From IMG/VR virus record IMGVR_UViG_3300033075_001437, positions 32,001 to 96,000 of that record: a DNA stretch of 64,000 bases; one strand, 5' to 3'. The translations under genes were made by a program, and so were the position numbers. The notes under the pieces were generated by a model. The model worked only from the letters and a program-made list of their open reading frames with translations. It had not been told where the DNA came from and did not search any database. Each line of letters opens with the position of its first letter. Position 1 is the first letter of the stretch. Source of the DNA: a virus. Its lineage: Duplodnaviria > Caudoviricetes. Positions 36,865-57,497 of this stretch are shown here, in pieces.

Positions 36865-38460
36865 TTACCTTCTCTTTGGAACTCTTATAATTACTTCATT
36901 TCTTAATAAACTAAAAGAATTTCTCTTTTCATCATATTTAACCATCATTCTAACACAATTTCCAACAGCTAGAGCTGTGCTTATCTTTAAATTAGAATTC
37001 ATTTCTTTTTCCCATATAAAGACAGTAGCCGATTCAACACCATCAAAAACATTAAGCCTCATATATGAAGTTTCAGATTTAGTTTTAGCAGATGTTATCT
37101 CTGTTATAATGACCTCAATATCAGCTGCTTTCTCATGTTCACATATTTCTATAGCACTTCTAATAGATAGACTATTGTGTTGATAAACATCCATAGGTGA
37201 ATGAATATAGTAACCTAAAAACTCTTTCTCAAAATTTAATAATTCTTCTAAAGTATAATCTTCTTCCTCCTCAAAAACCCGCATTAGTTTATCAAAACTT
37301 TCATCTGGTTCAGGTTTAAAATTCGCTAATTTGTTTGGTATCTTATTCCTTTTAGGATAAATTGATTTATATTCTGCTATTAATTCTTTAGATTTCTGCG
37401 ATATTTTATCATCTGTCCAGCCATCAAGCAACAAAAGCTTTTTCTTTACTTCTTTAGCATGTTCATAAGAAGTATATTTATATTGATAATAATTCCAAAG
37501 AGCCTTTGAATGGCCATGTTTCGGGATATGCTTAAAAGCACCTAGCTTTATAAATCTTTCTAGAACCTTTTTATCCTTTTTATCATCAGCGACAAATTCA
37601 TCTAAAGTTTTATAATCTCCCTTACCAGCAAATTTTTGTGCAGCTACCTCACCTATGCCTTTAACACCAATTAACCCCTGGTTAATAACACTGCCTGTAA
37701 CAGTATATTTATTTGTAAGATTATTGATATTAACAATTCCTAAATCTAGCTTATCATCGTTTTTATAACGGCCCAATTTTGTTATATCTGTTGGAACCCA
37801 CCCCTCATTGCGTGCTGTTTGAATATATCTTTCTAATTTATCTGGATGGCATGAACTCATAACAGCCGCCCAATACTCTGGTGCAAAATGAGCCTTTAAC
37901 CATAATGTTCTATACGCAACTAAACAATATGAAACAGAATGTGAAGCGTTAAAAGCATATCTAGCAAATCCTGACATCATATCCCACCATCTTAAAGCTT
38001 CACTTTCTCCAATGGTTTTAGTAGCACCTTCAATCCACTTACTTTTAACAGCTTTGAGTTGTTCTCCCCATTTCTTAGCAACAGCTTTCCTTGCATTTTG
38101 CGCCTCCGTAGAAGAAAACCCTCCAAACGATTGCCACATAGCAGCAAGTTGCTCTTGATAAACAAGATAACCATATGTCTTGTTTAATATTTTAAGCATT
38201 CTATCATTCAATTTAGTCTTCCATATCTGATTCTTATCATCTCTATTAGCTATAATTTCAGGTATAAAATCGATAGGACCAGGATGCCCACAAGCATTCA
38301 ATATCATTAAATCGTAAAAATTATTAACACCATGCTTTAGAATAGAATTATGGACAACCAACCCGTCTATTACAAAATTACCTTCTGATAAACCATTTGC
38401 AAAATTATGTATATCATATGTCTTTGCTTTGTGATGCTTTTTTATGCTTTTGATCTTCAT
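36865..38460 (-). CDS. dnaE: DnaE piece 5: split-intein C-half (38 aa) plus fingers/HhH/OB
   Basis: MKIKSIK..TYDI..GNFVIDGLVVHN|S, then GHPGP, YGYLVYQEQ, ARKAVAKK, FARYAFNASHSVSY, WLKAHF, VKGIGE, EKEFLGYY. Confidence 0.92.
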   Translation of the reverse strand: MKIKSIKKHHKAKTYDIHNFANGLSEGNFVIDGLVVHNSILKHGVNNFYDLMILNACGHPGPIDFIPEIIANRDDKNQIWKTKLNDRMLKILNKTYGYLVYQEQLAAMWQSFGGFSSTEAQNARKAVAKKWGEQLKAVKSKWIEGATKTIGESEALRWWDMMSGFARYAFNASHSVSYCLVAYRTLWLKAHFAPEYWAAVMSSCHPDKLERYIQTARNEGWVPTDITKLGRYKNDDKLDLGIVNINNLTNKYTVTGSVINQGLIGVKGIGEVAAQKFAGKGDYKTLDEFVADDKKDKKVLERFIKLGAFKHIPKHGHSKALWNYYQYKYTSYEHAKEVKKKLLLLDGWTDDKISQKSKELIAEYKSIYPKRNKIPNKLANFKPEPDESFDKLMRVFEEEEDYTLEELLNFEKEFLGYYIHSPMDVYQHNSLSIRSAIEICEHEKAADIEVIITEITSAKTKSETSYMRLNVFDGVESATVFIWEKEMNSNLKISTALAVGNCVRMMVKYDEKRNSFSLLRNEVIIRVPKRR

Positions 38461-38462
38461 AC

Positions 38463-38783
38463 TTACGATAATACGTCATAAGGAGTTTTCGACATATCAA
38501 GTATATTATTAACTACAAACTCAACATCAAAATTTTCATCTATATTAAAAATTATAGCATGTCTAAGCGGTGGTTTAATAGATACTTCTTTATTAGTCAC
38601 CACAACTGTGCAACGATATAAATAATCGCAATAAATCATAATACGACGAGGAATCAACGGATTTCCTTTCACATTTATATTCACATTCTCAGCCATAAGC
38701 CTACGTATTATATTGCCCAATATGCATGAAGAAATATCATCTCCTAACCATGGAGGAAGATGGCCATTACGCTCAAACTTCAT
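38463..38783 (-). CDS. small paralog-family protein
   Basis: FNIDENFDVEFVV, resembles the adjacent ORF. Confidence 0.55.
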   Translation of the reverse strand: MKFERNGHLPPWLGDDISSCILGNIIRRLMAENVNINVKGNPLIPRRIMIYCDYLYRCTVVVTNKEVSIKPPLRHAIIFNIDENFDVEFVVNNILDMSKTPYDVLS

Positions 38784-39039
38784 TATAATACACCATTATA
38801 TATTGCACAATTAACGAAACATCAAAATTATCATCTATATCAAAACAAACATCAAAATTGTCACTTGGCAATATAAAAGATTTTGACAAATATATCGCTT
38901 GGCGATCAATTTTAAGAACACATTTGAATCTTTGATAATAATAGATAGAAACACGATATTTTAAAAAATGTCTAATTATACTAATACCATCAAAGCTCAC
39001 AATTTCTTGCACTACAGTATCTAATATATCGTCGATCAT
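38773..39039 (-). CDS. small paralog-family protein
   Basis: MIDDILDTVV...FDIDDNFDVSLIV. Confidence 0.55.
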   Translation of the reverse strand: MIDDILDTVVQEIVSFDGISIIRHFLKYRVSIYYYQRFKCVLKIDRQAIYLSKSFILPSDNFDVCFDIDDNFDVSLIVQYIMVYYNEV

Positions 39040-39506
39040 GCAAATGTCTTATAAATCTTAGAATCTTTAACTTCTGGAAACATTTCAGCAGCAAAAGCAA
39101 GATACTCACTAGCTTGACAATGCTGTGAAAGTTCATCCCATAAAAGGCCATAAGCAGGGCGTTGCGAGTTTGCAGGACAACCTTCGCGTTTCTCATACTC
39201 GCAAATAGCTGCTATTATTTTACGACAGCCCTCACAAAACTGGATATCAAAGCTTTCTCCATAATCATGATCACACTCCGCATCTAAATCATAACAAATT
39301 TCACATGTTTCACGTTCACGCATAAACACTTTAGTTCTTGGCTCATTCTCTTCAATAATTGACCCACACTCACCGCATGTGCATTTATCGCCGTTAGACA
39401 ATAAATCTTCTTTAATAATTTCTGCAAACCAATCTGGATCATAATCAAAGCACATATCTATATCCTTAAGCGGGTTTTCTTCCAGGTTCAGAATTCCAAT
39501 TGGCAA
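39036..39506 (-). CDS. Cys-rich hypothetical protein
   Basis: CGECG, CEIC, CEGC. Confidence 0.6.
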   Translation of the reverse strand: MPIGILNLEENPLKDIDMCFDYDPDWFAEIIKEDLLSNGDKCTCGECGSIIEENEPRTKVFMRERETCEICYDLDAECDHDYGESFDIQFCEGCRKIIAAICEYEKREGCPANSQRPAYGLLWDELSQHCQASEYLAFAAEMFPEVKDSKIYKTFA

Positions 39507-40026
39507 ACTTTATAAATTCTTTCCTCTTATTAATAACAACAATGTTTGAATCTTTATAATGGAATTGTATAGTATCTAACCAACCAACCCTGTCTAACGT
39601 CAATAGCAACTCTGACAACATATGATGAACAGTTGGAACAGTGCCAGTATCGCCTAAACTATCATGAAATAACATTTTATCGCAACTAGTTAAGAATTTG
39701 GCCCATTTCAATCTATGGTCGCCTAAACCATCTATAAACAATACATCACATGTTGGTATTGTATCTGGAACTTCATATATCATTTTAAGATCTGGTTTGC
39801 ATGATTTATCTATAAGGTCTAACCTACCTTTAGTTTTATCAAACCATTTCTGATCTGTCTCATATGATGTAAACTCTTTAGCTATCTGAGATATTAGTAA
39901 TGTTGAACCACCCATACCAAACTCAACAACTGATTTACCTAAGCACAACTCATATAATACAACTACATCAGATCTACTAATATCACCCTGGATTTCAACT
40001 GTTTGTGGATTGAACATATAACTCAT
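39466..40026 (-). CDS. class I SAM-dependent methyltransferase-like
   Basis: VVEFGMGGST, SYETDQKW, DVLFIDG, FHDS. Confidence 0.7.
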   Translation of the reverse strand: MSYMFNPQTVEIQGDISRSDVVVLYELCLGKSVVEFGMGGSTLLISQIAKEFTSYETDQKWFDKTKGRLDLIDKSCKPDLKMIYEVPDTIPTCDVLFIDGLGDHRLKWAKFLTSCDKMLFHDSLGDTGTVPTVHHMLSELLLTLDRVGWLDTIQFHYKDSNIVVINKRKEFIKFANWNSEPGRKPA

Positions 40027-40651
40027 GTTTTCTCATGTTACAATGTTTTATCATTTCATCTTTATCATTATGATCAGGATTTTGTTCTAACCATAGTGAT
40101 AAATACGCATCATACCAATTCCAAATTTCAACACCATCACGCCAAATACTTTTGCAAGAAAAAACTGATGCATAATTTGTCTCTTCAGGTAAATCAGTTT
40201 TAGTTCTAAATGAAAATTCGCTACAATTATCAGAATACAATTCTGTAATAGCATATCTTTTCCATTTAGTTAAATATTGAATCCCACTAAATGTATATGT
40301 TTTAGTCTCATCACAAAGCCATTCATCGCCGACTTCGATCAACGATTTCAATCTATAATTAATCAAATCGCTAAAATCAGCTTCAATTAATGCTTCTTGC
40401 CAAAGTTTATACTCTTCATTTATGTCGTCTTCTGACAATTGCAACCTACTAGCAGCATCTCTTATTTTACCAATAAATTCCGAATCTCCTCTTTTTATAA
40501 TATTACAAAAATCTTTAAAATCAATACAACGCCAAAATGTGTCAATATACACTTTGCGGGCGATTACAAAATTCAATCCAATACTATTGGCTAATTCACG
40601 CCATTGCTGATTTTTTATAATTGAAATTTTAATATATGGTTCAGTTTTCAT
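39995..40651 (-). CDS. hypothetical protein
   Basis: 218-aa ORF. Confidence 0.55.
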   Translation of the reverse strand: MKTEPYIKISIIKNQQWRELANSIGLNFVIARKVYIDTFWRCIDFKDFCNIIKRGDSEFIGKIRDAASRLQLSEDDINEEYKLWQEALIEADFSDLINYRLKSLIEVGDEWLCDETKTYTFSGIQYLTKWKRYAITELYSDNCSEFSFRTKTDLPEETNYASVFSCKSIWRDGVEIWNWYDAYLSLWLEQNPDHNDKDEMIKHCNMRKHELYVQSTNS

Positions 40652-40674
40652 GTAAATCTGTTACCAAAGCATAT

Positions 40675-40899
40675 TTAAAAATAAACTAAACAATCATATA
40701 TCATTTTATCTACATCAAGATCGCAATAATTAATTTTCAATACACCATTGTCATTTAAAATAGATAAATAATCATCGCGTATTTGTATTATACAAATATT
40801 AAACCCACATTTATATACATATATATTTAATCCTGAAATTATGATTTCACATTTATTTAATTTAAATCCAAACGATATAATATTTATTAAATCTTCCAT
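40675..40899 (-). CDS. small paralog-family protein
   Basis: MEDLINII...INYCDLDVDKMI. Confidence 0.6.
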   Translation of the reverse strand: MEDLINIISFGFKLNKCEIIISGLNIYVYKCGFNICIIQIRDDYLSILNDNGVLKINYCDLDVDKMIYDCLVYF

Positions 40900-41132
40900 G
40901 TCATTACATCTAATATCAAACTGTCAATGTCAAGATCACTATAATTAATATAAGTAGTATGACTCTTTGTAGTCAATGCTAAAAAATTATTGTGTACACT
41001 TATAACTCCAACGGAATAAAAATCATCTTTAAACACATATATATCATTTCCGCCAGATACACGCACTTTGCAGCCATTTCTATCTAATCTTGATAAAATT
41101 AAATCAGTTATTTCATCGACAATTGGTATCAT
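40887..41132 (-). CDS. small paralog-family protein
   Basis: DEITDLILSRL...INYSDLDIDSLI. Confidence 0.6.
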   Translation of the reverse strand: MIPIVDEITDLILSRLDRNGCKVRVSGGNDIYVFKDDFYSVGVISVHNNFLALTTKSHTTYINYSDLDIDSLILDVMTWKI

Positions 41133-41581
41133 TGAAAAACCTTATGATGAAAACTCATAGCGTATGCGGCAGAATCTGTATCTTCATAAGTATTATATAA
41201 AATAGAAAAAGCCTTGAAACCAACAGCTTTAAAAAATAATTGTGCGCCTAAGTTAGTTTCTACAACATTTAAATATATATTATCACGGTTTCCAGTTAAT
41301 AATTTATCAACTAATTTTTTAATTAGCTTAGCGCCAAACCCACGCCTTCTAAAATCAGGATGTATAGCCAAATTTTTTAAATAATATTCAGACTTACGTA
41401 ATTTATAAACCATATAACCTATGACAATATTATCACACTCGATAACCATACCAAGTGTTTTACGTTGTCTTAAAAAATAAATGAAATCCTGTTCTGTCCA
41501 TGGATTTTCAAAACTCGCTTTTTCTATTTTTAAGACATCTGGTAGATCAGAACGAGCTATCCATCTAATTGTCATAGCCAC
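41129..41581 (-). CDS. rimI: RimI-like GNAT N-acetyltransferase
   Basis: IRW..DL..VL.IE..SF..PW, NLAIHPDFRRRGFG, V.ETNLGAQLFF..GF. Confidence 0.85.
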   Translation of the reverse strand: MAMTIRWIARSDLPDVLKIEKASFENPWTEQDFIYFLRQRKTLGMVIECDNIVIGYMVYKLRKSEYYLKNLAIHPDFRRRGFGAKLIKKLVDKLLTGNRDNIYLNVVETNLGAQLFFKAVGFKAFSILYNTYEDTDSAAYAMSFHHKVFQ

Positions 41582-41829
41582 CGCCTGACGACAAAATCGA
41601 CAAATCTATCGATATCAAACTCACAATAATCTAAACGTTCAGGATAATTTGGCCATGTATTATTGCTATTTATATAAATATAATACCCGTCTTTGCTAAA
41701 TAAAACAGTACAAACATGTTTATTTTTAACATGGATAGCACAACTTGAATGAAGAGATTTAGCTGATATGTTCGGCATCGAACTGAGAGTTTGAGCCACA
41801 ATATCAGCTAAATCTATTGTTATCCCCAT
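41572..41829 (-). CDS. small paralog-family protein
   Basis: IDLADIVAQTL...LDYCEFDIDRFV. Confidence 0.55.
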   Translation of the reverse strand: MGITIDLADIVAQTLSSMPNISAKSLHSSCAIHVKNKHVCTVLFSKDGYYIYINSNNTWPNYPERLDYCEFDIDRFVDFVVRRWL

Positions 41830-41841
41830 TTTATATAATCG

Positions 41842-41871
41842 TTAACGGTAAATTATAACTGTTACCGTTAA
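41842..41871 (-). terminator. inverted repeat, terminator-like
   Basis: ttaacggtaa / ttaccgttaa 10-bp stem in an intergenic gap. Confidence 0.45.
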
Positions 41872-41889
41872 TGACCGCATATCCCAGTA

Positions 41890-42303
41890 TCATTTGTCAA
41901 GTTCAGCAAGTTGCTTTTCTAATTCTTCCATAGACGCCGCTGTTAATTGTTGATCCTTTTTAGCAGCAATCGCATCCAACAGCTTCTTTCGCTCTGCTGC
42001 ACGAACATTGCGTGCTACAACAGCTCGATTCTCTTCTTGTTTTGTCTTAATAACATCTTTGACAATATCAAGAGCAACAGTCAATGCTGTTTTCAAAGGA
42101 TCTGATGAAGTGTCTTCAACAAACGACTCAACATCCATGCTTTTCAATTTCTCATTGATAGCGACCGCCACAGAATTAAGATCAAACCCAGATTGATTTT
42201 TAAGTTGCAATTGAAACAATTGCTCAACAGTAAGATCGCCTCTTGTAGACGGAAACCGCAAACCATTCTTAGCCGCAAACTTATAAATATCACTCACAAC
42301 CAT
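41890..42303 (-). CDS. conserved phage protein, partner of the adjacent 660-aa gene
   Basis: LRFPSTRGDLTVEQLFQL...coiled coil; GGAG upstream. Confidence 0.7.
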   Translation of the reverse strand: MVVSDIYKFAAKNGLRFPSTRGDLTVEQLFQLQLKNQSGFDLNSVAVAINEKLKSMDVESFVEDTSSDPLKTALTVALDIVKDVIKTKQEENRAVVARNVRAAERKKLLDAIAAKKDQQLTAASMEELEKQLAELDK

Positions 42304-42337
42304 TCTCCTTAAAAATAAAACACGCTAAACAACATTC

Positions 42338-44320
42338 TTAAAACAATAACGTATATGGCCGCTTGCCATCAACCACAACAGTAACAGAATCTCCACGTGC
42401 CGCTGTAAACCCAACACCAGATATCTGATCATCAACCGATTGGCATTTCGTTTTAGCGCCCAATACCTCAAAAACTTTACGATGTTTTTCGAGATCATGA
42501 CGTAAAAATTCGTTGTAAACGCCACGAACTGAATTTGGATTTTTGCAGCCCTTAAGAGCAAAAATCAAGTGCTTAGCACCAACTTTATTATCACCCCAAT
42601 AATTTGGACTATTCATTATAGCAGTGACGGGTATCAATGTCTCAGTCTTTACCCCCCATTTTTCCTGCGACACTGAACCGCCTATAAGCTTAGTCTTAAT
42701 ATTGGTTAGCATTTTATTCTTTATAACCAATTCAAAACACTCAACATCACTTGAAACTGCTTTGTTATAACTATATTGGTGAATTTGCCCGCCAAACTCA
42801 ACCTCAATTGCAAACCCAACATCAATCGTCTCACGACGATTAAACTGATTAACCCAAATAGCATATGTGCCATCGATAAGTTTATTAAATGCTAAATTCT
42901 CTACCGGATTTCGACATTGCCCTGAACCAGCGTTCATATCAACATCAAGAATGCCAAATTTATCGCCATAATATATATGTTTAGAATCCGGCGTTTCAGC
43001 ATGTAAATCTAAATCGTCGAAATTAAACCAACTTAGACTGACACGTAGTAAAGCATTGATGTTACCACCAGCAGCTTTAACACGCTCCTTCACGCTATCA
43101 GTAACATCACCGTCATAACTCCAAGCGAAATTATTATCCCAACGAAATAATCTCTCTGGACCATCAGCTCCAGTAAGGCAAATAAAGTTAGATTGATGCT
43201 TATTCTCGACAAACACTTCCACAGACTTGGCTGTAGGAAGAACAGAAGCTACAAAATCGTCGGCTGATAATTTTGTAGCTTTAGATAGATTAAATGGCTG
43301 ACGATTTATACTATCTTCAAGCAAAGCAGCAACGCCATCCTTCATTTTACCTCTTTCATTATTATCGACAAATAAGACATCATTTACCGATACATCTGAT
43401 AGTTTAGCATATCGACGAGCAATTGCACCATGTAGCCCAAGATCAGTTAATGTTTGAACCGCCGATTCTACCATTTTTTGTGTAATAATTGCTGTTGGCC
43501 GTTTATAATTCATAGGCGCAACTTTAGATTCAAAAGACTTTACAGCAACTTCAATGTCTTTACCTTCTGCCATATCAGTCAATAAAGTACCGATAACAGT
43601 GTTGCGAAATCTGGCAGATCGGTCATTAAGATTCTCCCATATAAACAAATTCTTATTAACAGCTTGCTTAAATCTTTGCAGTAATGATACAAATCCTTGT
43701 ACTGCTGGTTTATGCTCTTCACCACGATATAATCCATTTGAATTTATAAGATCAAGCACTGCTTCAAGGTCTGCTTCTTTAATTTCAGTAAGACCGCGAT
43801 TGCATACTTGAAAGATAGCGTCTTGCTCGCTGCGTTTGGTTTCTGGATCAGCTGTACGATGCTTAGCTGCAACTACTCCATAGAAGTGATCGTATCGCGC
43901 ATTTGTCTTTGAATCATAGTTATACTCTTGGCCAAATTTTAATTCTTTAGTGCGAAACACAGTTTTAATAGTTGCAGATTGAACTAAAGCGTCCAAAGCA
44001 TCAGCGACTTGTTTATAAGGATAAGGCAAATTTAAACCGCCCCAAACAGTAATAATCTTACCGTCTTTGATGTTTACAAGATGGCCTAACCGACGAATAA
44101 ATTGTTTGCAGCATTGACAATCGTGTGTAGTGCGTGTTCTAAATATAGGATTAGTATCTTCTGGAAACGAAGCTATATATTTATCATAGATTGTGTCACT
44201 AACGTCTGTTACATATAGCTCATTTTTTGACATTTCATTAAAACGAGCATGAACTGCCGCAGAAAATTGCGAAAAATCAGTGCACACAATAGGCTTTTGT
44301 TGAGTCGCAGCCATAATCAT
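42338..44320 (-). CDS. conserved phage protein with YfaP/DUF2135-like domain
   Basis: HDCQCCKQFI, YRGEEH, NYKRP, SLSWFNFDDLDLH..LDVDMNAG..PVEN. Confidence 0.7.
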   Translation of the reverse strand: MIMAATQQKPIVCTDFSQFSAAVHARFNEMSKNELYVTDVSDTIYDKYIASFPEDTNPIFRTRTTHDCQCCKQFIRRLGHLVNIKDGKIITVWGGLNLPYPYKQVADALDALVQSATIKTVFRTKELKFGQEYNYDSKTNARYDHFYGVVAAKHRTADPETKRSEQDAIFQVCNRGLTEIKEADLEAVLDLINSNGLYRGEEHKPAVQGFVSLLQRFKQAVNKNLFIWENLNDRSARFRNTVIGTLLTDMAEGKDIEVAVKSFESKVAPMNYKRPTAIITQKMVESAVQTLTDLGLHGAIARRYAKLSDVSVNDVLFVDNNERGKMKDGVAALLEDSINRQPFNLSKATKLSADDFVASVLPTAKSVEVFVENKHQSNFICLTGADGPERLFRWDNNFAWSYDGDVTDSVKERVKAAGGNINALLRVSLSWFNFDDLDLHAETPDSKHIYYGDKFGILDVDMNAGSGQCRNPVENLAFNKLIDGTYAIWVNQFNRRETIDVGFAIEVEFGGQIHQYSYNKAVSSDVECFELVIKNKMLTNIKTKLIGGSVSQEKWGVKTETLIPVTAIMNSPNYWGDNKVGAKHLIFALKGCKNPNSVRGVYNEFLRHDLEKHRKVFEVLGAKTKCQSVDDQISGVGFTAARGDSVTVVVDGKRPYTLLF

Positions 44321-44397
44321 TCTCCTTCGAATTCAGTTAATAATAGACAATTTCGTATCAATAACAAATACGTCGCACGATTTCAAAAAGTTTATCT

Positions 44398-46540: not shown

Positions 46541-46674
46541 TGTTTTATAATACGTTTTAAAATTTAGTATATAACATTGTTGTTACGTATAATGGCAGAT
46601 GTTTTTGCTGTTTCCTATCTCGGTATACGTTTAATAAAAAGATGAAGATTAACAGCGACAGTCTTTTTAACAAC

Positions 46675-46709
46675 ACAGGGAGCTACAAAATCAAATTGTA
46701 GTTCCCTGT
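46675..46709. terminator. hairpin, terminator-like, downstream of the SPFH gene
   Basis: acagggagctacaa / ttgtagttccctgt 14-bp stem with one G-U. Confidence 0.55.
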
Positions 46710-46725
46710 TTATTTTCAATACTTA

Positions 46726-48048: not shown

Positions 48049-48095
48049 AAAACTCTCCTAGGTTAAACATACAAAAGATTTAAAATACAATAAGC

Positions 48096-49335: not shown

Positions 49336-49358
49336 GTTATTAATGTTAATTTCATGTT

Positions 49359-49610
49359 TTATATTTTACTGCCACTATAAAGTATCCTGCATATTATGTT
49401 GCCGACAAAAACGTCAGTATCTACAAATTCATCATAATTAGTAACTATAGGTATACAATCGCCTATAAAGCTCTTAATCTTATCATTATGGAAAATAATA
49501 TCTGCATATATGCCGCCATCTATAGTTATAAATCTACGACCACGTATGAAGGTTATATTGTTTATATTGTCAAGTCTGTTAGCAATAATATCTATCAAAT
49601 CATCGATCAT
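49359..49610 (-). CDS. small paralog-family protein
   Basis: MIDDLIDIIANRL...TNYDEFVDTDVFV. Confidence 0.55.
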   Translation of the reverse strand: MIDDLIDIIANRLDNINNITFIRGRRFITIDGGIYADIIFHNDKIKSFIGDCIPIVTNYDEFVDTDVFVGNIICRILYSGSKI

Positions 49611-49867
49611 AAAGCACAAAATAAAGCACAAAATAAATCATCTTTTAATTCGTGATTGGCCCTTGATATGGTTCGTTCGACAAATTTTCAGCAAACTCCT
49701 CAGCAGCGTCACGACTGTCGAACCACCGACACCATCCAGTTTTGGTATTGGTGGTTAACGAATGACGAACAATCCAGTCAGAACCTGATCCATATACAAT
49801 AACTTCAGATACCCCACAAAAAACCGTTGTATAATCATAACGATAAACATATATCATATTAATTGCC

Positions 49868-50386
49868 CTATTTTGAATTTTCAAACATTTGTTTTTTGAA
49901 ATCTTCAAGTTCCTTGTTTGATAGCGGACAATTTGGGCAAACCGCAACGTCCTTTGATGGTTTATCGCTAATGAATTTTGCCCCACAACCCAAGCATTGG
50001 ATACGAATGCCAGCAGCTTTCTCTAACCTTTCAAGCCTAGATAATATATCAAAAACTGGCTCGCCATAACTGCCAATTCCAATTTGTTCTGCTTCTATTA
50101 AATATGCTGGTATTTTACCATCTTTGAAATCATTTAAAAACCAACATAAATCGTGTAAAAAACCTGTACTTATTGAAGATAGAATAATATTATAGTTTTC
50201 ATCTCGTATTTTGCCACAATCGCCATCATATACTCCACTTATTTCGTTTTCTGGAATATTTTTAAATCGAATAAAAAACTGGCGATAACACGGCATAAGA
50301 CCACTGAGACTGCTATTGGTGTTTTTGACGTTTGTGGTTTCTATATTCATTCGTTTAACATACCGATTCTGATTTTCATATGTCAA
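49868..50386 (-). CDS. hypothetical protein with C-terminal Zn ribbon
   Basis: CLGCG...CPNC. Confidence 0.55.
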   Translation of the reverse strand: MTYENQNRYVKRMNIETTNVKNTNSSLSGLMPCYRQFFIRFKNIPENEISGVYDGDCGKIRDENYNIILSSISTGFLHDLCWFLNDFKDGKIPAYLIEAEQIGIGSYGEPVFDILSRLERLEKAAGIRIQCLGCGAKFISDKPSKDVAVCPNCPLSNKELEDFKKQMFENSK

Positions 50387-50436
50387 ATCCTTGGAAAACC
50401 TTACACTCTCAAAACTAAGAATTTAGTGGCTCCAAT

Positions 50437-50988
50437 TCATTGCCCTATCTTTTTCAAAACTTCCTTAGGTTTTACCACTTCTCTTAGTGTATATTGCCGA
50501 GCATAATAAGGAATCTGGGAAGCTATAATCCGAGAATACTCAGATCGAGAAACTGAATAAATCCATTCTTTATCTGAAAGAGCATTCGCTTCTTCAATCT
50601 CTTGGCGAAAACGCTGCACAAAACCATGAGATTCATAACCACGATGAATACGATCTAGGTTCTCAGGATCATTCTTATAAATTTCAACCACCCAGGCGGG
50701 ACACTTATGCGAGCGAATTAAGTGTGTACCAAGTAGAACATTCTCCCCTAAAATTGTAATAGATTTTCTGGCTTCATCATGTTCTTCACTGGTAAAATCT
50801 CCGGCTTCTAATTGCCACTGTTCTTTTGGGATTCTTTCATTAGCAAAGGGTATCAAAACTCTTTCCTGAGAGAATAATGGTATCACTAATAAGTTAAAAA
50901 GCATAATAAAAAAGAGATAAAACTGTATGTTACAACGATTCATTCGCATTAACTTTCTCCCTACAGTGCAATTCATTAAAAATATCAA
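50437..50988 (-). CDS. hypothetical protein with signal-peptide-like N-terminus
   Basis: FYLFFIMLFNLLVIPLFSQE; start uncertain. Confidence 0.5.
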   Translation of the reverse strand: MIFLMNCTVGRKLMRMNRCNIQFYLFFIMLFNLLVIPLFSQERVLIPFANERIPKEQWQLEAGDFTSEEHDEARKSITILGENVLLGTHLIRSHKCPAWVVEIYKNDPENLDRIHRGYESHGFVQRFRQEIEEANALSDKEWIYSVSRSEYSRIIASQIPYYARQYTLREVVKPKEVLKKIGQ

Positions 50989-52832
50989 TTAGACTTGTAT
51001 ACAAATCTAAAATTACCACAATCAAACAATAACCTAAAACCATTTAACAACATTATTTCTCTTTCAGACAAATCTTTATCGTAAAACAATATAGATTTTT
51101 TATCAAAAAGGCTTTTTAATTTATGCTTTTGAAATGTTTGCCTTGAATAAATCTTATTATTCTTAACATAACAATACCCTGGTCTAGTCACACCATCAAA
51201 TTTCATACCAAGTTTGTTATAAACACCGCCAGTCGCATACCTAGCATCGGCATATGTTATAACCTCATTCGGCTTAATCTTATTAATAAATTCTTTAAAC
51301 ATTTTAGACGCACCACCAACTATATTATAGCCAATTTTGGTTGCTAATCTGTCAATTTTAAACTTACCATTTCTACCTATAAACGACATAACTGAAAATA
51401 CATCATGTCCATCAGTTAAAGCGACACCAAAATTGCACGAACCAGATCCTTTTAAATGGTTCTCACTTAAAAATTTCCTGATAACTTTAGAGTCTGCAGT
51501 AATGACCTTCAATTTCCTAGCATAAATCGTTTCACTTAACATTAAAGCATTTTTGATCATACTTTTGACAATTTCGAATTTATTTTTAATTTCATAATCT
51601 GTAAACTGAAACAGTCTTAAATTATTATTCTCGCATAATTTAAGCTTATTAATATGTCTATTAGAATCAATATCTGATAAATTATCGTATGAATGCCAAT
51701 ATAAGCCATTTACCTCTATACCAATTTTATGTTTATCGATATATGTGTCTATCTCATATGGGTTAATAATGCTCCTGTCGTTTACAATATAATCTATATT
51801 TAATTGGTCTAACAAATTATTTATAGCAACATGAGCATTTGAAACATTGCATGATTTGCAACCGTGGCCTAAAAAATGATATCTTGGTATCTGATAGAAT
51901 TCACCATGCGATGGGCAGATTATTTTAACTTTAGTTTCAACATTTTCATAATCTACAAACGAATAATCGTATTTATCGCCGTGAATAGTTTTAGATTTTA
52001 GTATAAATTCTTCAAAGCTCAACTTATAATTATCTTTATATCTATCTATGGCACACTCCTTACATGCTTTTCCTTTTGAAATGTTGCACCACCTACCTGA
52101 TTTCAAACCATGTTTCTTACATTCATATGTTAACACACCTTTTTCATACTTTAAATATTTAAAACTATCGCCAAACAATATTTCAAATTGTTTTTTTCTA
52201 GAGATTTCTTCTACATTTCTTCTATCGTTTAATGTGCGTTCTTTAATTATAGGTTTAAATTTTTCATTTTTACAACCTTGACATCCAACAAGGCCGCGTA
52301 GATGCCTGCGAAAATGAACAGAAAATTTACCATGTTTTGAACAAACAACATCAATATTACTATCCCTATTGTTGTAGACGGCATTGCTATAATTATAATT
52401 TGGATACATGTTATTTAAAGTTGATTGAAAATGCTCTGGTATTTTACCACCATTACATATAGGACATTGCCATTTATTTAATATAAGATTAGCTGTAGAT
52501 ACAAATTTGCCATGTTTAGAACATACAAAAGTAAATTTAAGATTCTCAAGAAAGCTTTTTGGTTCAATTAAATCATGTTCTGGATACAGCCGTTTAAATT
52601 CTTTTTTAAAACTATCAAATTTATTAGCCATATCAACTTTAATAGTTTGGATACTACATAGTTTACATTCGCTTTTATTCTTAACATGAGATTGTGGCGT
52701 TTGCCAAAACGAACCATGTTTTGGACAAATTATTTCTACTTTTGAACAATTGTTAACATATGTGACTTTAGAATAATCATATTTATCGCCATGTATTAGC
52801 TTGGCATTTACTATAAATTGCTCTGTATTCAT
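50985..52832 (-). mobile_element. free-standing homing endonuclease (Hef-like), paralog of 44398..46047
   Basis: IHGDKYDYS..IICPKHG.F repeats, EIDTY..IGIEVNGLYWHS, IYARK..IVGGASKM..TYADAR; directly downstream of DnaE piece 3. Confidence 0.8.
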
Positions 52833-52868
52833 ACACTTATTTTTGCACTTATAATCGATATTTCGGGT

Positions 52869-54020
52869 CTAGAACTTCTTCAAAACATCTTGAACATCAA
52901 CTTCTTGTCCATTGTATAATATCTTATCGCCATGATTAAGTAAAAGTATCTCCCCATTCTTTAATTTGACAGCATACTTTTTAACAATTGGACCAAACGA
53001 TATACCTCTATTTTCTTTTATCAATCTGCAAGCACTGTATATATATTCTAATGTCTTCAAACCCAATATATCGAGCTTGCAATAGCCAAGCTTGCTTAAG
53101 TGTGTGTTGCGCCCTTCTGGCCACATTGTTGACCATGGATTTTTATTGCTACTTCTGGTTAAAGGAACATTGCCGAACAGTGGTTTATTAGCTATAACTA
53201 TAGCCCCAGCATGAACACCAGCGTTCCTAACCTTGCCGATCATTTTAATAGCATATTCAAATAAATCTGGATGATTATCCTTGAATGCTTGCAATTGCTG
53301 ATACTCAAATAAAGCCCTTCCTATCGTTATATTGTCATATTCATCAGATCCACATCTAGGGCATTTTAATTCAGCATGTACAAATTTGCATTCTTTCTCT
53401 TCTTCACTATCAACTTCTTTATACTTCCCTTTGCAAGTTGACTGCCCAAACTCTCTTAAATCATCAACATCTTCAGGTAAAGTTGTTGTTAACGCATGAA
53501 TTTCAGATTGATGTACCTTACCAATCGCTCTAGCAACATCCAATAATGCTGATTTGAATTTATATGTCTGCCAAGTTCCGACATTGCAAACATTGCCGTA
53601 CTCATCATTAATATCAATATTAAATCTTGTAGCCGCATATTTTTTAATATCATCACGTGCTTCTGGTAAACAATCTATATCTATGTCAGGCATGTCCATA
53701 TCTTTAGTAAAATCAGATGGTAAGTTGCCATATTGATCTAAAAATTTATGAACCTGCGTATATGATGCATTATTCAACAATGGTTCTGTTCTTGTAGCTA
53801 TTGGGTCTATATCAACCATACCAAGAAGCCACGGCAGAACCAACATACTTGGATTACTAGAAAACTTCCTGTTTTCTATATATAAATTAATCCAATATGT
53901 TTCATATCCTTGTTTTTCTATTTCTGAGAATTCGAATTTAAGTCTATCTATATAAACTTGATCTTTATTTTTACTATTTAAATTATTTAAAGCTATTTCT
54001 TTTAATTCTTCCCAAATCAT
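52869..54020 (-). CDS. dnaE: DnaE piece 3: catalytic palm/thumb
   Basis: MPDIDIDC, SALLDVAR, GVHAGAIVI, KLDILGLKTL; Zn-finger insertion (C..CPRC). Confidence 0.92.
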   Translation of the reverse strand: MIWEELKEIALNNLNSKNKDQVYIDRLKFEFSEIEKQGYETYWINLYIENRKFSSNPSMLVLPWLLGMVDIDPIATRTEPLLNNASYTQVHKFLDQYGNLPSDFTKDMDMPDIDIDCLPEARDDIKKYAATRFNIDINDEYGNVCNVGTWQTYKFKSALLDVARAIGKVHQSEIHALTTTLPEDVDDLREFGQSTCKGKYKEVDSEEEKECKFVHAELKCPRCGSDEYDNITIGRALFEYQQLQAFKDNHPDLFEYAIKMIGKVRNAGVHAGAIVIANKPLFGNVPLTRSSNKNPWSTMWPEGRNTHLSKLGYCKLDILGLKTLEYIYSACRLIKENRGISFGPIVKKYAVKLKNGEILLLNHGDKILYNGQEVDVQDVLKKF

Positions 54021-54430
54021 TTGCCGCCTGCACCTGGATGTATAGCGTTCATATGGTTAGTCAGCCCAAATTGTTTTTTAAACTTTTTATTACATATTGG
54101 GCAAGTAATGTCTTTAGTTGATTCTTCTATTAGCGACTGTGCCGGTTCTTGATCCAATACTGGCGCAGTTTGAATTTGCGGCACTTGCGGCGTAATTTTA
54201 TCTTGTTTTACCGGTTTACTTTGATGATTTATATAATTTTCTTTCAATTTCCAAGGCTGCATAGCGTATGTAAAGCCATCTTTCTCATATGTATCAGCTT
54301 GATAAACAAGAGCTTTTTTAGATTTGGCAATATCTGTTGCGACATCATTCTTCAAAACTGTAGCTAAAACCTTAGCAGGTGGGTGTACGACAATATACGC
54401 TACTTTATTCATTACAAGTACCACTGTCAA
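54017..54430 (-). CDS. C2H2 zinc-finger protein
   Basis: CPICNKKFKKQFGLTNHMNAIH. Confidence 0.7.
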   Translation of the reverse strand: MTVVLVMNKVAYIVVHPPAKVLATVLKNDVATDIAKSKKALVYQADTYEKDGFTYAMQPWKLKENYINHQSKPVKQDKITPQVPQIQTAPVLDQEPAQSLIEESTKDITCPICNKKFKKQFGLTNHMNAIHPGAGGK

Positions 54431-54839
54431 AAGTGTCTTTGCCTAGTATGACTTTATCGCAAATACTTTCTAAGAACGTTTGTTTATATTGGTTAATATA
54501 AACATGATCAAACTTCATAAGTAATAAACGAATATTCCGTAATAACAACTTATTCTTATTAGATTCATACTTCCAAGTATTACCATCTTTAATAAAAAAA
54601 TTTATTACATCAGCGTTGCAATATAAATACAAAGTATTACAATAAACATTATTATAATTATATGAGGTCAAAGCAGATAGAATCGATTGCAATTTTACAA
54701 ATTCAGCAGTTTTATTATATAGCTGATAAGCATAATATCTATGATAATTGCAATATACAGATTTAATAGCTACAGTTGATACAGTGTTATCTACCTTTTC
54801 ATAACAATATAATTTACAATTTATTGCCATGGACGTCAC
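54405..54839 (-). CDS. RNase HI-like fold, degenerate
   Basis: NKTAEF..L..AL and YCNADVINF..WKY..LL..IR.LL.KFDHVYI follow the RNase HI pattern without the catalytic Asp residues. Confidence 0.4.
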   Translation of the reverse strand: MTSMAINCKLYCYEKVDNTVSTVAIKSVYCNYHRYYAYQLYNKTAEFVKLQSILSALTSYNYNNVYCNTLYLYCNADVINFFIKDGNTWKYESNKNKLLLRNIRLLLMKFDHVYINQYKQTFLESICDKVILGKDTFDSGTCNE

Positions 54840-55236
54840 ATATTGTAGGATATTCTGATTTTGTAGCTGCCGCTAATGCGTTTAATAATTTAGATATTAT
54901 TCTTAATAAATTATATTTCGCCTGTATCTTATCTATTTTCCTTAATTTAATTATAGCTATCAATAATTCGTCATTTAAATTCATGATTTCTTCGGTAAGA
55001 CCTTTCGCCGCATTAATAGATGCTACATGTTTCGACACATGATTTGCAACTGATTCGATAATTGCATATGATAAGCCTATTAATTCTCTCGTCGGATCAT
55101 TATTAATAATCAATGAATCTATAATATCTATAGATTTAATAAGATATGCGGCCAATTCCGAAGTTGGGCCATTATATATTAGCAAGTATATTCTAATTGA
55201 ATGTTTAAATTCTGAATTTGCATCTATTTTATTCAT
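54814..55236 (-). CDS. hypothetical helical protein
   Basis: 140-aa ORF coupled to DnaE piece 2. Confidence 0.55.
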   Translation of the reverse strand: MNKIDANSEFKHSIRIYLLIYNGPTSELAAYLIKSIDIIDSLIINNDPTRELIGLSYAIIESVANHVSKHVASINAAKGLTEEIMNLNDELLIAIIKLRKIDKIQAKYNLLRIISKLLNALAAATKSEYPTICDVHGNKL

Positions 55237-55556
55237 TATTTTTCCGGCATTGTCACTTTTAAAAGGTATCCGCCACGGCTGCTTGACAAGAATCTGTCAA
55301 AACTCAAATCCCATTTCATTGGGTCATAATTTGAAATTCCTAATAAATAACATACTAAACTTCCGCCAGCCGAATTAGAACTGAACACTCCATTTAATTG
55401 ATATGTGTTAGTGGCGCTAACTTGTAAATCATATACTTTACCGGTGTATTTCTTCTTTGTTATCTTGTTTATTCTTATTCTCTTTATAGTATTTTTTGTA
55501 ACCAATTTCTGCAATTCTTTTATGTTTTTGATCTGTGAAGGTAATAGTTGATTCAT
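55236..55556 (-). CDS. dnaE: DnaE piece 2: split-intein C-half plus 45-aa extein
   Basis: KKYTGKVYDLQV..YQLNGVFSSN|SAGGSLVCYLLGISNYDPMKWDLSFDRFL. Confidence 0.9.
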   Translation of the reverse strand: MNQLLPSQIKNIKELQKLVTKNTIKRIRINKITKKKYTGKVYDLQVSATNTYQLNGVFSSNSAGGSLVCYLLGISNYDPMKWDLSFDRFLSSSRGGYLLKVTMPEK

Positions 55557-55921
55557 TGAAAATAACCCTAATTTGCCGCCACATGTGACTTCCGCCTGTT
55601 CCTCTTAAAATACCTTCGGAAAGCAATCTCTCCGTTGTATATAATACATAATTATCAGCAACGCCAGTTTCTATGATATATCTTTCAGCGGCTGCCTGTT
55701 TTTCGCCAACTTTGTTTTGGTAAAATCCTTTTATTTCTATTATCGATTTAACATTTTTATCATCTATGACACAGAAATCTGGATGATAAAAATGTTTATC
55801 ATATGCTATACTAAAATCGCACCTTCTGATGGTTTTATAATTGTTTCTAACGTGCCAAATATATATGTTGAATATTTCCGCACTTATTGCAATTATATGT
55901 TATTTTGGTTTTTTTCGACAT
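55438..55921 (-). pseudogene. eroded PD-(D/E)XK (TnsA-N-like) homing endonuclease
   Basis: ATG at 55921 (MSKKTKITYNCNKCG..) stops at 55847; shifted frame 55899-55438 reads CDFSIAYDKHFYHPDFCVI..IIEIKGFY with no ATG upstream of these motifs. Confidence 0.75.
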
Positions 55922-57497
55922 TAGCGATTAAATCCGAGATACCACCGATGATTTCATCAGTATCTTTGATTTCATATGCTTTCAGTAAACATACAATATT
56001 ATCTCTTATGACATATAGCTTATGGTCAGAAGTTAATTCCAAAACGCATCCGTCAACTTCAATAACAAACAACTCTTCAGATACATCATAAATGAATTTA
56101 TTTTCAACTACTTGTTTATCACCGAATCCGTCAATTATCTCATCGCCTATAGATATGTCAGATATTTTTTGGCAACTGTTAACGGACACATTAACTAAAG
56201 CGTCTGGTGTAGTGCAGCCACGGGGGGCAAATGGGAAGCCCCTATTTTTGCCATAATCTATTAAATCTTTAGTTATTAAAAAATAACTAGCAAAACCTTT
56301 TTCAATAAATCTGCTTAATTCTAATTTAGCCTGATCTAAATAAGTTACCTCTTTGCCATCAACAACAAATTTCCTATCACACTTATCTAAACCAAGCTCC
56401 TTCAATCTATTCTTAACAATTGTTATAAGCTTCTTATCAGCATCTTCAATACTCGGTATCTTAGGCGATAAATCGAATTTAACATTGTCGCACTTGTCAG
56501 CTATTTCAATAGAGTTATCACATGCCTCATGAAACCTTCTATCATCTATACCATCAGAATATGTATTATTCTTGAATCTTGTCCATAATTCAGCACGTGT
56601 TTTAAAATATTGTTCATCGCTATTAACATGAAACAAATCTGGCGAATCAACAGTTGTTTCTTGATCTATTGCCATCATGATTTTTTGGATCATTGAATCT
56701 TCTCTTTTCATATAATGACAATCATTAGTTATAACTGGTTTAATTTTAAATTTATCAGCTATCATATTTAATATTTTAAAAACTCTGTCATCGCCATCAA
56801 CCCCAGGCATTTGAAGTTCAATATAATAATCATCGCCGAATATTTGTTTATATGATTTTATAATATTCACAGCGGAATTAAGACATTCACTGTCTGTGCG
56901 TTCCTTTAAAATATTGCCTTCTCTGTCCTTTATTTGCTTAGTTCTTAACTCGTGTGATACTGGGCCATTTAAACAACCAGATAAAACTATTAATCCTTCT
57001 TTATATTTAAACAATTTTTCAGTCCAAGACCTGTTATATTTTGCTCTACCCATTCCAAATAAACCATCTTTATAAGCTTCTGTAGTTAACTTTATGAGGT
57101 TTTCAACTCCTTGTCTGTTTTTACATAAGACAGTAAGATGTCTATTTCTAGTTATTTTAAAATAATCTTCAATATTTTGTTTTTTCCATTCTTCAGATCT
57201 CCATTTTATCCCTTTAGATTCTAACTCTTGTCTTATCGGCTCATGGTCATTCAGATAAATTTCGCTACCAGCGATATATTTAAGACCGCTTTTCTTGCAC
57301 TCAAAAAAACCATCAGGCACTGATGCCATGTGGCCATGTTCAGTTAGAGCCAATGCACGGTAGCCTCTTTTCTTGCTTTCAGAGGCATATTGCTGGACAT
57401 AAGCAACACCGTCTAACATTGAAGCAATACTGTGATTGTGTAAATGTATTATCTCTGAATCACCAACATAATCCTCGCAAGTATAAATCTTATTCAT
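55893..57497 (-). CDS. dnaE: DnaE piece 1: PHP domain + palm start + split-intein N-half (107 aa)
   Basis: HLHNHS..LDG, ALTEHG, GSE, SGCLNG, TNDCHY, GFASYFLI, PRG|CTTPDA..LTSDHKL. Confidence 0.93.
   Translation of the reverse strand: MNKIYTCEDYVGDSEIIHLHNHSIASMLDGVAYVQQYASESKKRGYRALALTEHGHMASVPDGFFECKKSGLKYIAGSEIYLNDHEPIRQELESKGIKWRSEEWKKQNIEDYFKITRNRHLTVLCKNRQGVENLIKLTTEAYKDGLFGMGRAKYNRSWTEKLFKYKEGLIVLSGCLNGPVSHELRTKQIKDREGNILKERTDSECLNSAVNIIKSYKQIFGDDYYIELQMPGVDGDDRVFKILNMIADKFKIKPVITNDCHYMKREDSMIQKIMMAIDQETTVDSPDLFHVNSDEQYFKTRAELWTRFKNNTYSDGIDDRRFHEACDNSIEIADKCDNVKFDLSPKIPSIEDADKKLITIVKNRLKELGLDKCDRKFVVDGKEVTYLDQAKLELSRFIEKGFASYFLITKDLIDYGKNRGFPFAPRGCTTPDALVNVSVNSCQKISDISIGDEIIDGFGDKQVVENKFIYDVSEELFVIEVDGCVLELTSDHKLYVIRDNIVCLLKAYEIKDTDEIIGGISDLIANVEKNQNNI

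Follow-up and report, generated by a model that had tools for sequence, protein, structure and literature searches.

A phage DnaE polymerase spread over five genes and its probable assembly from three chains

We describe a replicative polymerase, DnaE, that is spread over five separate genes in a 64,000-nucleotide stretch of viral DNA (the window), which corresponds to bases 32001-96000 of the 106,866-base IMG/VR record IMGVR_UViG_3300033075_001437. The source is a fragment of an uncultured jumbo phage, because CheckV rates the completeness of the record at ~30%. The reading that we favor, and consider probable, is that a DnaE which was already encoded by two genes has been cut three more times by selfish elements, that the products would form three chains, and that a remnant of the intein (HINT) fold would act as a clasp between the third piece and the chain that carries the fingers. 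If true, this is the most fragmented natural catalytic subunit of a replicative polymerase that we found (five genes, three chains), and it would show the extent to which selfish elements can dismantle an essential gene under purifying selection.

The five dnaE genes and their order

Five collinear minus-strand open reading frames (ORFs), P1 to P5, cover one DnaE in order across 20.6 kb, with all frames open in translation; they encode 538 (534 from the ATG at 57497), 106, 383, 178 and 531 amino acids, respectively. The original prediction had listed these frames as one polymerase spanning ~20.6 kb with about 20 genes in between, and both statements hold: Pfam and matches to solved DnaE chains agree on the order, and the ORFs between successive pieces number 0, 3, 7 and 12 (22 in all, plus one endonuclease pseudogene). 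By Pfam, P1 carries PHP (E-value 2.9e-35) together with the beginning of DNA_pol3_alpha; P2 combines an intein C-part with DNA_pol3_alpha positions 20-98; P3 carries DNA_pol3_alpha (E 4e-26), P4 the start of the fingers and an intein N-part, and P5 DNA_pol3_finger (E 9e-23) and HHH_6 (E 1.9e-6). When compared to solved DnaE chains, P1 18-439 corresponds to M. tuberculosis DnaE1 2-384, P3 251-341 to Taq 556-642, and P5 46-323 to E. coli alpha 626-900. All three catalytic Asp residues lie in P3 (PDIDID and KLDILGL) and align to Taq D463/D465/D618, the GS motif is restored at the P1/P2 splice site (PRG/SAGGS, aligning to GPGRGSAAGS), and the site equivalent to FNKSH, which had been predicted to be intact, reads FNASH and is uninterrupted within P5. 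The features of DnaE / DNA polymerase III alpha (family C) are thereby all present: PHP, a Pol-beta-like palm, the GS motif, fingers and HhH. The window has a GC content of ~31% and its minus strand carries nearly all genes.

A search of viral contigs with P3 yielded 12 loci on 11 contigs (43-55% identity), whose ORF maps we compared; the same search with P5 as the query yielded no confirmed relative. No GenBank phage was matched when 9.7 kb were compared by megablast, and tblastn of P3 against cultured GenBank phages returned solely DnaE genes, at ≤30% identity. One of the relatives, L006, lies in a 408-kb record rated 100% complete, and its two dnaE genes (an N gene and a C gene) are the only DNA_pol3_alpha matches in that record. 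The exteins of the window, which the original prediction had proposed to reassemble, tile end to end on these two unbroken genes with open frames and no gaps: P1 9-431 and P2 62-104 correspond to residues 3-468 of the N gene, and P3 1-343, P4 16-70 and P5 39-527 to residues 4-910 of the C gene.

Two split inteins and an ancestral two-gene layout

The break between P1 and P2 is occupied by the two halves (IntN and IntC) of a split intein, intein c, and the parts of this region are as follows.

56217..57497, minus strand: P1 extein, comprising PHP and the beginning of the palm; its last residues, ...FAPRG, directly precede the Ser of the GS motif (Pfam PHP; 60% identity to residues 3-425 of the L006 N gene)
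55896..56216, minus strand: IntN of split intein c, 107 amino acids, Cys1 (CTTPD), block B T-S-D-H; absent from the intein-free N genes of L006, L007, L012 and others
55501..55866, minus strand: 5'-truncated homing-endonuclease pseudogene in the 336-nucleotide gap between P1 and P2, overlapping the P2 start in another frame, with HPDF...EIKG kept
55374..55556, minus strand: IntC of split intein c, 61 amino acids, ending ...VFSSN before Ser+1 (Pfam Intein_splicing positions 110-155, E 4.8e-5)
55239..55373, minus strand: P2 extein, 45 amino acids, SAGGSLV...FDRFL...VTMP, closing the N chain; continuous with the P1 extein where relatives have no intein (Pfam)

Relative to intein-free alleles, intein c is a precise insert at FAPRG/SAGGS. 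Its class 1 residues are present (Cys1 in CTTPD, LTSDH, a terminal Asn and Ser+1, as SSN/S), its IntN is homologous to the split IntN of L015 and weakly matches a solved intein chain as well as intein/Hint models, and its IntC shares 74% identity with the corresponding L015 gene; L020 has this split intein as well. The longest P1 ORF begins at a TTG (57509), and the ATG at 57497 better matches the start in relatives. By tblastn, the pseudogene is 53% identical over 122 amino acids (E 2e-45) to the C-terminal part of the 337-amino acid ORF that L015 carries between its halves of this intein. It has stops upstream, its N-terminal ~197 amino acids are gone, and it differs from the two intact endonucleases of the window; judged from its reading frame, the endonuclease of the P1/P2 gap is a decayed homing gene.

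A second split intein, intein d, separates P4 from P5.

46331..46495, minus strand: P4 extein (residues 16-70), where the fingers begin; its end reads GIFQFDTNTAK (73% identity to residues 361-415 of the L006 C gene)
46007..46330, minus strand: IntN of split intein d, 108 amino acids, Cys1 (CCRFD), block B T-E-E-H (Pfam Intein_splicing positions 4-96, E 9.6e-5)
38347..38460, minus strand: IntC of split intein d, 38 amino acids, ending ...LVVHN before Ser+1, read from the translation; the insert is absent from unbroken C genes
36868..38346, minus strand: P5 extein, 493 amino acids, remaining fingers (FNASH intact), HhH and C-terminal domain (Pfam; 48% identity to residues 416-910 of the L006 C gene)

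Intein d is likewise a precise insert, at FQFDTNTAK/SILK, where relatives read ...LAK followed directly by SIL..., and its canonical class 1 set is complete (Cys1, LTEEH, His-Asn and Ser+1, as VVHN/S). Its IntN gives weak matches to the solved DnaB, gp41-1, NrdJ-1 and DnaE inteins, and the same IntN occurs at the same site in six other metagenomic proteins that each comprise P3, the P4 extein and IntN (P0016, P0036, P0039, P0043, P0047 and P0050); Pfam, at E up to 10, has no match on the 38-residue IntC of P5. Comparison of P4 with L025, a contig from an independent European Nucleotide Archive (ENA) assembly (85% protein identity), gave a synonymous divergence (dS) of ~1.07 and a ratio of nonsynonymous to synonymous divergence (dN/dS) of 0.07, with dN/dS of 0.056 in the P4 extein and 0.08 in IntN d. 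Because the intein motifs are in place and IntN d is under purifying selection (dN/dS 0.08), we infer that inteins c and d trans-splice. The prediction of three junction types, two trans-splicing reactions and three chains (P1-2, P3 and P4-5) is thus borne out as far as intein motifs and precise inserts can speak to it.

The octamer ACGTATTA lies 8-16 nucleotides upstream of the P4 and P5 starts (46548-46555 and 38469-38476, minus strand) and also precedes P4 in L025 (L025:24-31); it is not enriched in the window (5 matches vs 2.9 expected), and a scan for sigma-70 promoters stayed at background level. A hairpin with a 14-bp stem is located at 46675-46709, between a 440-amino acid cargo ORF and P4, and is likely a terminator that sets P4 apart from the cargo genes upstream.

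Inteins occupy at least five other sites (a, b, e, f and g) in the dnaE pair of this clade (L010, L011, L014, L015, L018 and L024), and therefore dnaE is an intein hot spot in these phages. Relatives carry full-length LAGLIDADG-type inteins at YIPG/CEIY and LAND/CHY, another site at TYGxx/xYQEQL, a split intein at RYAFNK/SH that begins CLS.. like the cyanobacterial DnaE intein and is accompanied by a DUF723 endonuclease, and, in P0008, a split intein at HPGPMQ/C. The survey of related genomes that had been suggested along with the original prediction accordingly turned up both intact two-gene alleles and differently split ones, with at least four pieces in L015, L018 and L020. Outside the window, weak matches to intein models occur at G000:C1:16578-16838 and 24305-26308, in ORFs of 813 and 1830 amino acids, and other genes of the phage probably carry inteins as well.

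The break between P2 and P3 holds no intein. In most loci among the relatives (L006-L009, L012/13 and L016/17) DnaE is encoded by two genes: an N gene of 466-482 amino acids, which equals the contiguous P1 and P2 exteins, and a C gene of 901-920 amino acids, which equals contiguous P3, P4 extein and P5 extein. The gap between N and C genes is present in 12 of the 12 viral-contig relatives with homologous small genes inside; in two-gene relatives it measures 1.3-1.9 kb and contains three small genes, two of which are homologous to the window ORFs 54814-55236 and 54017-54430. At least 120 further homologues of C-gene size are among the protein-database matches listed. Both dnaE flanks are syntenic with relatives, including the gene downstream of P5 (36367-36861). 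Since the two-gene layout is found throughout the relatives, P2/P3 is not a fracture that arose in this genome; by these gene maps it is the ancestral two-gene state of a large clade of uncultured jumbo phages. The original prediction had counted it among fresh fractures, and on this point it has to be revised. The layout includes a duplicated, degenerate palm segment of ~100 residues at the head of P3.

54017..55236, minus strand: gap from N gene to C gene, with three small ORFs of 140, 144 and 137 amino acids, the last overlapping the P3 start
53694..54020, minus strand: N', a degenerate second copy of the palm start (P3 residues 1-109), without the GS motif and the FERFL arginine (Pfam, hhalign and an AlphaFold2 (AF2) model)
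52992..53693, minus strand: catalytic palm plus the thumb, which holds a Cys/His insert (P3 residues 110-343; matches to DnaE chains in PDB)

The duplication is apparent in several ways. P3 alone matches Pfam DNA_pol3_alpha positions 9-260, and the end of P1 together with P2 matches positions 14-98; hhalign of N-gene tails against C-gene heads aligned 72 columns (E 7e-4); and the AF2 model of P3, with a mean predicted local distance difference test (pLDDT) of 90 and residues 1-105 at 93-98, aligns from 1 to 342 with Taq PolIII alpha 304..643 (Z 12.9, root-mean-square deviation (rmsd) 13.6, 240 aligned) and also with E. coli 287..557. From the Pfam, hhalign and AF2 results it follows that N and C genes each hold the segment of ~E. 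coli residues 290-400. Both copies end ...MP immediately before the DxD strand. The N copy retains PRGSAGGS and FDRFL. In the C copy, ...SNP(N/S)... stands in place of the GS motif and the FERFL arginine is gone, yet this degenerate copy is well conserved across homologues. P3 D112, D114, D116 and D317 are invariant in 60 homologues. The simplest history for the N/C split would be a partial tandem duplication followed by complementary decay. The ancestral split divides the Pol-beta-like core between its nucleotide-binding motif and its metal-binding strand, and so looks like a fission by these two steps.

The small genes of the N/C gap could encode polymerase accessory proteins. The 137-amino acid ORF, which overlaps the P3 start codon, has a zf-C2H2 match (E 3e-5), and Atlas and PHROG searches assigned no function to the conserved small genes of the gap. 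Within the P3 thumb (53300-53450), a Cys/His cluster (C196, C211, H215, C220 and C223) is nearly invariant in the 60 homologues and looks like a clade-specific zinc-ribbon insert. The record of L008 contains a third, much stronger DNA_pol3_alpha match (G003:C1:1919-2560, E 4e-48) near the contig end and apart from its two-gene DnaE, which may reflect either another dnaE-like gene or a chimeric end of the contig.

The palm/fingers junction

The break between P3 and P4 falls exactly at FG/GWDD, the palm/fingers boundary (~E. coli residue 560/561). Relatives read ...NRGISFG-(2-20 residues)-GWDDIDP... across this site, and the window has an insert of ~55 residues there, with ~40 extra residues on P3 after FG and 15 on P4 before ISGWDDIDP.

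52872..52991, minus strand: tail of P3 (residues 344-383), comprising four beta strands plus a helix; unbroken C genes lack it (profile and structure match to inteins)
46496..46540, minus strand: P4 head, residues 1-15, net charge -6, a fifth strand; absent from unbroken alleles

A homologous tail ends six other stand-alone P3-like proteins of 383-404 amino acids that are 44-50% identical (P0009, P0023, P0027, P0037, P0040 and P0048), and a homologous head is present in three other P4-like proteins (P0006, P0007 and L018), with M1, D6, I7, S9, I10 and D15 invariant. When the head is compared to that of L025, five of five nucleotide differences are synonymous. In P0008 the gene is unsplit, and tail, an 8-residue linker and head form one continuous insert of one chain. 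Counting this unsplit gene, the cassette thus recurs in at least seven alleles besides that of the window; in L018 the P3-like and P4-like genes are 24 nucleotides apart and have no endonuclease in between.

For this part of P0008, AF2 returns a model with pLDDT 91-95 in which four strands are followed by a short helix and then by a fifth strand, the equivalent of the head. We compared residues 48-104 of this model exhaustively with 48,161 PDB representatives. The top eight matches were inteins in eight of eight cases, and Z ≥5 was reached by four chains, all inteins. The best was the MchDnaB-1 intein, 45..119 (Z 5.9, rmsd 2.5, 52 aligned), and the others were PI-PfuI 78..429 (spanning its endonuclease domain), Prp8, DnaX, gp41-1, Cat, Npu and NrdJ-1. 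Similarly, the tail in the P3 model matches the Npu DnaE intein 52..90 (Z 4.6, rmsd 2.4, 39 aligned), and a profile of the tails aligned to 15 split IntNs in the block-B region with a score of 24.5 (P 2e-4), a value that none of 300 column-shuffled profiles reached (mean 9.0 ± 2.0). Pfam at E up to 10 had no match on the isolated P3 tail, and Foldseek against PDB had no hit at E ≤ 0.001 for the mini-domain model. A match of the tail to intein block A by hhalign (P 0.0025, 21 columns) was dropped, as the larger profile and both structure searches favor block B.

No splicing residue (position-1 nucleophile, TxxH, terminal Asn or +1 nucleophile) is conserved in the seven tails and four heads, and in view of this, together with the intein-like fold, we read the insert as a non-splicing HINT middle and did not file it as an intein. 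The models suggest that the P3 tail and P4 head read as the middle of a HINT fold that is broken at the usual position of an intein endonuclease. The original prediction had taken P3/P4 as a plain cut, and this view gives way to a break within a putative non-splicing HINT-fold remnant. No insert >50 residues, and no active intein ancestor, was found at FG/GWDD among 120 longer C-gene homologues. That the cassette might be a working minimal intein of some unknown kind, ligating P3 to P4, appears highly improbable: the fractured-gene order (IntN-like, endonuclease, IntC-like) and the HINT-like structure are what such an intein would have, whereas the tails have no conserved Cys/Ser/Thr at their first position, the heads have no terminal Asn and no conserved +1 nucleophile after them, block-B TxxH is lost, and ~45 N-terminal and ~20 C-terminal residues of the HINT fold are missing.

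Split inteins associate first through oppositely charged strands (PMC2677866; PMC11766414), ahead of any chemical step (PMC11766414). The heads have a net charge of -4 to -6 and the first tail strand of +2 to +4, and the two are complementary in every pair examined; by analogy, tail and head would bind each other. Prediction of a complex between P3 296-383 and P4 1-70 (score 0.17, verdict mark 0.32) counts neither way. Tail and head could instead be inert leftovers, with P3 and the fingers chain held together by the native palm/fingers interface alone, as in endonuclease-split phage enzymes. The break does lie at a natural domain boundary (~E. coli residue 560/561), the insert is missing at this site in most alleles, and the evidence from structure and profile for a HINT origin is modest and speaks to origin rather than to binding. 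Tail and head are, on the other hand, kept across alleles with core sequences 44-50% identical, the head has accumulated five synonymous and no amino-acid changes relative to L025, the unsplit version is modeled with confidence as a single mini-domain, and the charges are complementary throughout; we therefore regard inert leftovers as unlikely.

The cassette alleles (eight among the 48 alleles of our P3-core tree) are scattered on the tree, where starred branches force at least three changes, and an approximately unbiased (AU) test rejects their monophyly (log-likelihood difference 273, p 9e-8). Since the tails are homologous and the alleles scattered, the cassette has either spread horizontally (homing) or been lost precisely and repeatedly, both of which are expected of a homing element. 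We tentatively propose, with somewhat more doubt than conviction, that tail, endonuclease and head together form a distinct selfish element, an intein derivative without splicing, which would home into the dnaE alleles of related phages and be tolerated since the HINT fragments re-associate. If the clasp is real, nature would have pared an intein down to a device for non-covalent binding, a case that bears on the evolution of inteins and their fate after homing; an essential enzyme could then be fractured permanently without protein ligation, and the pair of fragments (~40 + 15 residues) would be a naturally occurring minimal heterodimerising tag, a possible source of small orthogonal tags for pairing proteins.

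From the observed anatomy, homologies, conservation and distribution of these genes, we infer splicing, binding and polymerase activity in the following manner. In the usual two-gene state of the clade, the N gene (~470 amino acids) encodes PHP and the start of the palm with the GS motif, and the C gene (~900 amino acids) the degenerate palm copy, catalytic Asp residues, thumb, fingers, HhH and C-terminal domain. One cut would have lodged a canonical split intein within the GS motif, after its G and before its S, with a homing endonuclease that is now a truncated pseudogene; a second would have placed a canonical split intein after FQFDTNTAK, with an intact endonuclease followed by eleven cargo genes; and a third, the palm/fingers cassette, would have brought in the ~40-residue P3 tail, an endonuclease (plus six cargo genes) and the 15-residue P4 head. 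Trans-splicing of P1 with P2 would yield an N chain of 472 amino acids, the length of the unbroken L006 N gene, and trans-splicing of P4 with P5 a fingers chain of 563 amino acids, while P3 (383 amino acids) would remain a separate chain. P3 would dock on the fingers chain as its basic tail complements the acidic head, in addition to the native palm/fingers contact, and the N chain would dock on P3 as in two-gene relatives.

Several observations weigh against this proposal. Intein c has Ser-Asn in place of the penultimate His, a non-canonical pair that is conserved in the window, L015 and L020; inteins without a penultimate His are known. The AF2 model places N' where the functional copy of the N chain should also sit. 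For the HINT remnant, Z-scores are modest (4.2-5.9) and only the middle of the fold is present, and a reversed-sequence control for the tail profile scored 19.7 vs the observed 24.5, so that part of the profile signal is a generic beta-hairpin pattern. Finally, the phage may have a second, family-A-like polymerase, because a 400-amino acid PolA-like ORF (11272-12474, minus strand) has a borderline DNA_pol_A match (E 1.6e-8, 34.4 bits vs a cut-off of 34.3), and another dnaE may lie elsewhere in the phage, given a record ~30% complete.

The last two points, along with the decay of the P1/P2 endonuclease itself, are what an explanation would draw on in which dnaE is decaying and the genome is replicated by another polymerase, either the PolA-like gene at 11272-12474 or a gene in the unseen 70% of the genome. 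We consider this very unlikely: the five ORFs are open and lack no catalytic or intein residue, the dN/dS of P4 is 0.07, the same architectures are maintained in many lineages, and the complete 408-kb relative has no other DNA_pol3_alpha gene. The original prediction had raised the case of an intact dnaE elsewhere with decaying pieces here; Pfam found no other DNA_pol3_alpha or finger match in the 107-kb record, which answers the question for a record that is ~30% complete.

Endonucleases, cargo genes and known systems

The gaps that flank P4 each contain an intact endonuclease gene and a set of cargo genes.

50985..52832, minus strand: free-standing homing-endonuclease gene, 615 amino acids, 36 nucleotides after P3 (phrog_559 'HNH endonuclease' E 2.7e-110; phrog_3339 'homing endonuclease' E 7e-73)
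46726..50988, minus strand: six cargo ORFs from the endonuclease to P4, 183, 172, 113, 90, 419 and 440 amino acids
44398..46047, minus strand: free-standing homing-endonuclease gene, 549 amino acids, overlapping the P4 end by 44 nucleotides (phrog_559 E 2e-119; phrog_3339 E 7e-78)
38463..44320, minus strand: eleven cargo ORFs from the endonuclease to P5, including a 660-amino acid phrog_1735 protein (E 1e-224) and a GNAT acetyltransferase (E 2e-16)

The two endonuclease genes are paralogues, the only two copies in the 107-kb record, and both have weak DUF723 (PF05265) repeats and a ...GIE.xGxYWHS motif in their translations; they are Vsr-like / DUF723 putative homing endonucleases. A sequence search returned no solved relative of the 549-amino acid protein. 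An endonuclease of the same DUF723 family directly follows the P3-like gene in L020-L023, relatives hold endonuclease homologues inside their own dnaE breaks, and L025 repeats the arrangement of P4 with an overlapping endonuclease. These recurrences also bear on whether the layout could be an artefact of metagenomic assembly, given that it rests on a single IMG/VR contig. We give this explanation almost no credence, as L025, with 85% protein identity, comes from an independent ENA assembly, six other independent assemblies have stand-alone tailed P3 genes, the order and strand of the pieces are collinear, and both flanks are syntenic with relatives.

The cargo looks like material acquired inside the breaks. 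None of the cargo ORFs has a homologue within 10 kb of dnaE in the 12 relatives, and family matches are limited to the GNAT acetyltransferase, phrog_1735 and phrog_2018 proteins and a lipoprotein-like ORF, with the others matching no family. The 660-amino acid ORF (42338-44320) and the 440-amino acid ORF (46726-48048) are absent from the records of five relatives, one of them, for the 440-amino acid ORF, a complete 408-kb genome, and the 660-amino acid ORF is therefore probably acquired DNA. This phrog_1735 ORF, of a family of unknown function, lies in the most GC-rich 2 kb of the window (0.38 vs ~0.31).

Fractured genes of environmental phages were described by Dassa, London, Stoddard, Schueler-Furman & Pietrokovski (2009; PMC2677866), including three DnaE loci broken at three sites, with Vsr-like endonucleases. 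As in those genes, P1/P2 and P4/P5 have split-intein halves around a free-standing homing endonuclease; unlike those loci, one gene pair here combines two such fractures with a putative non-splicing HINT remnant and an older intein-free split, one endonuclease is a pseudogene, and eleven and six unrelated cargo genes fill two of the gaps. The original prediction knew of no described five-part example, and our literature search likewise found no publication on a five-gene DnaE or on a natural non-splicing split-HINT clasp; fractured DnaE loci as such are published (PMC2677866), and each junction type recurs among relatives. The five parts are an extreme of a common theme and not a new principle.

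In cyanobacteria (Ssp/Npu), the replicative DnaE is made in pieces that are rejoined by a trans-splicing split intein (PMC2677866). A split intein (CLS..) occupies the cyanobacterial FNK/SH site in the relatives L011, L014, L015, L018 and P0007, whereas in the window FNASH is intact and the inteins are at PRG/SAGG and NTAK/SILK instead. The latter two sites are new for DnaE, one of them within the GS motif, and enlarge the set of natural split inteins to characterise.

The ancestral cut has a counterpart in group 2.2 jumbo phages, in which a 'minimal' PolIII alpha is split into an NTP-binding N protein and a Mg/DNA-binding C protein that are thought to reconstitute (Iyer, Anantharaman, Krishnan, Burroughs & Aravind, 2021; PMC7824862). 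The N/C cut here is at the same place, a likeness in the position of the cut that leaves kinship aside. Unlike the 'minimal' enzyme, the polymerase described here is full-size, with PHP, thumb, fingers and HhH, conserved genes lie in the ~1.2-1.9 kb that separate its two ancestral genes, and a degenerate copy of the NTP-binding segment persists in the C gene.

For the palm/fingers junction, splicing-dead split inteins have been used as affinity pairs, and a 'capture and collapse' model describes their assembly (PMC11766414). Tail and head correspond to the central region, i.e., the second half of IntN and the start of IntC; unlike the engineered pairs, they would be a natural truncated remnant of ~55 residues, with charges reversed relative to Npu (the acidic piece is on the C side), and would bind each other. 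A non-covalent precedent is also to be mentioned: Friedrich and colleagues are said to have reported in 2007 that nrdA, an essential enzyme gene of Aeromonas phage Aeh1, is split by the mobE endonuclease gene without an intein, and that its products assemble non-covalently and are active. We know of no intein-derived tail/head pair described for Aeh1 nrdA, and the cut here, unlike that one, would lie inside a HINT remnant that recurs in several lineages.

Upstream of P1, a glycosyltransferase family 11 (fucosyltransferase-like) gene (57496-58221, plus strand) is divergent from P1, with the start regions of the two genes overlapping. A dCMP/cytidine deaminase-family ORF (58538-58939, minus strand) is located near an adenylosuccinate-synthetase-family ORF (60867-62018, minus strand; 383 amino acids, Pfam E 1.4e-31), which is short like PurZ and lies ~3.4 kb upstream of P1.

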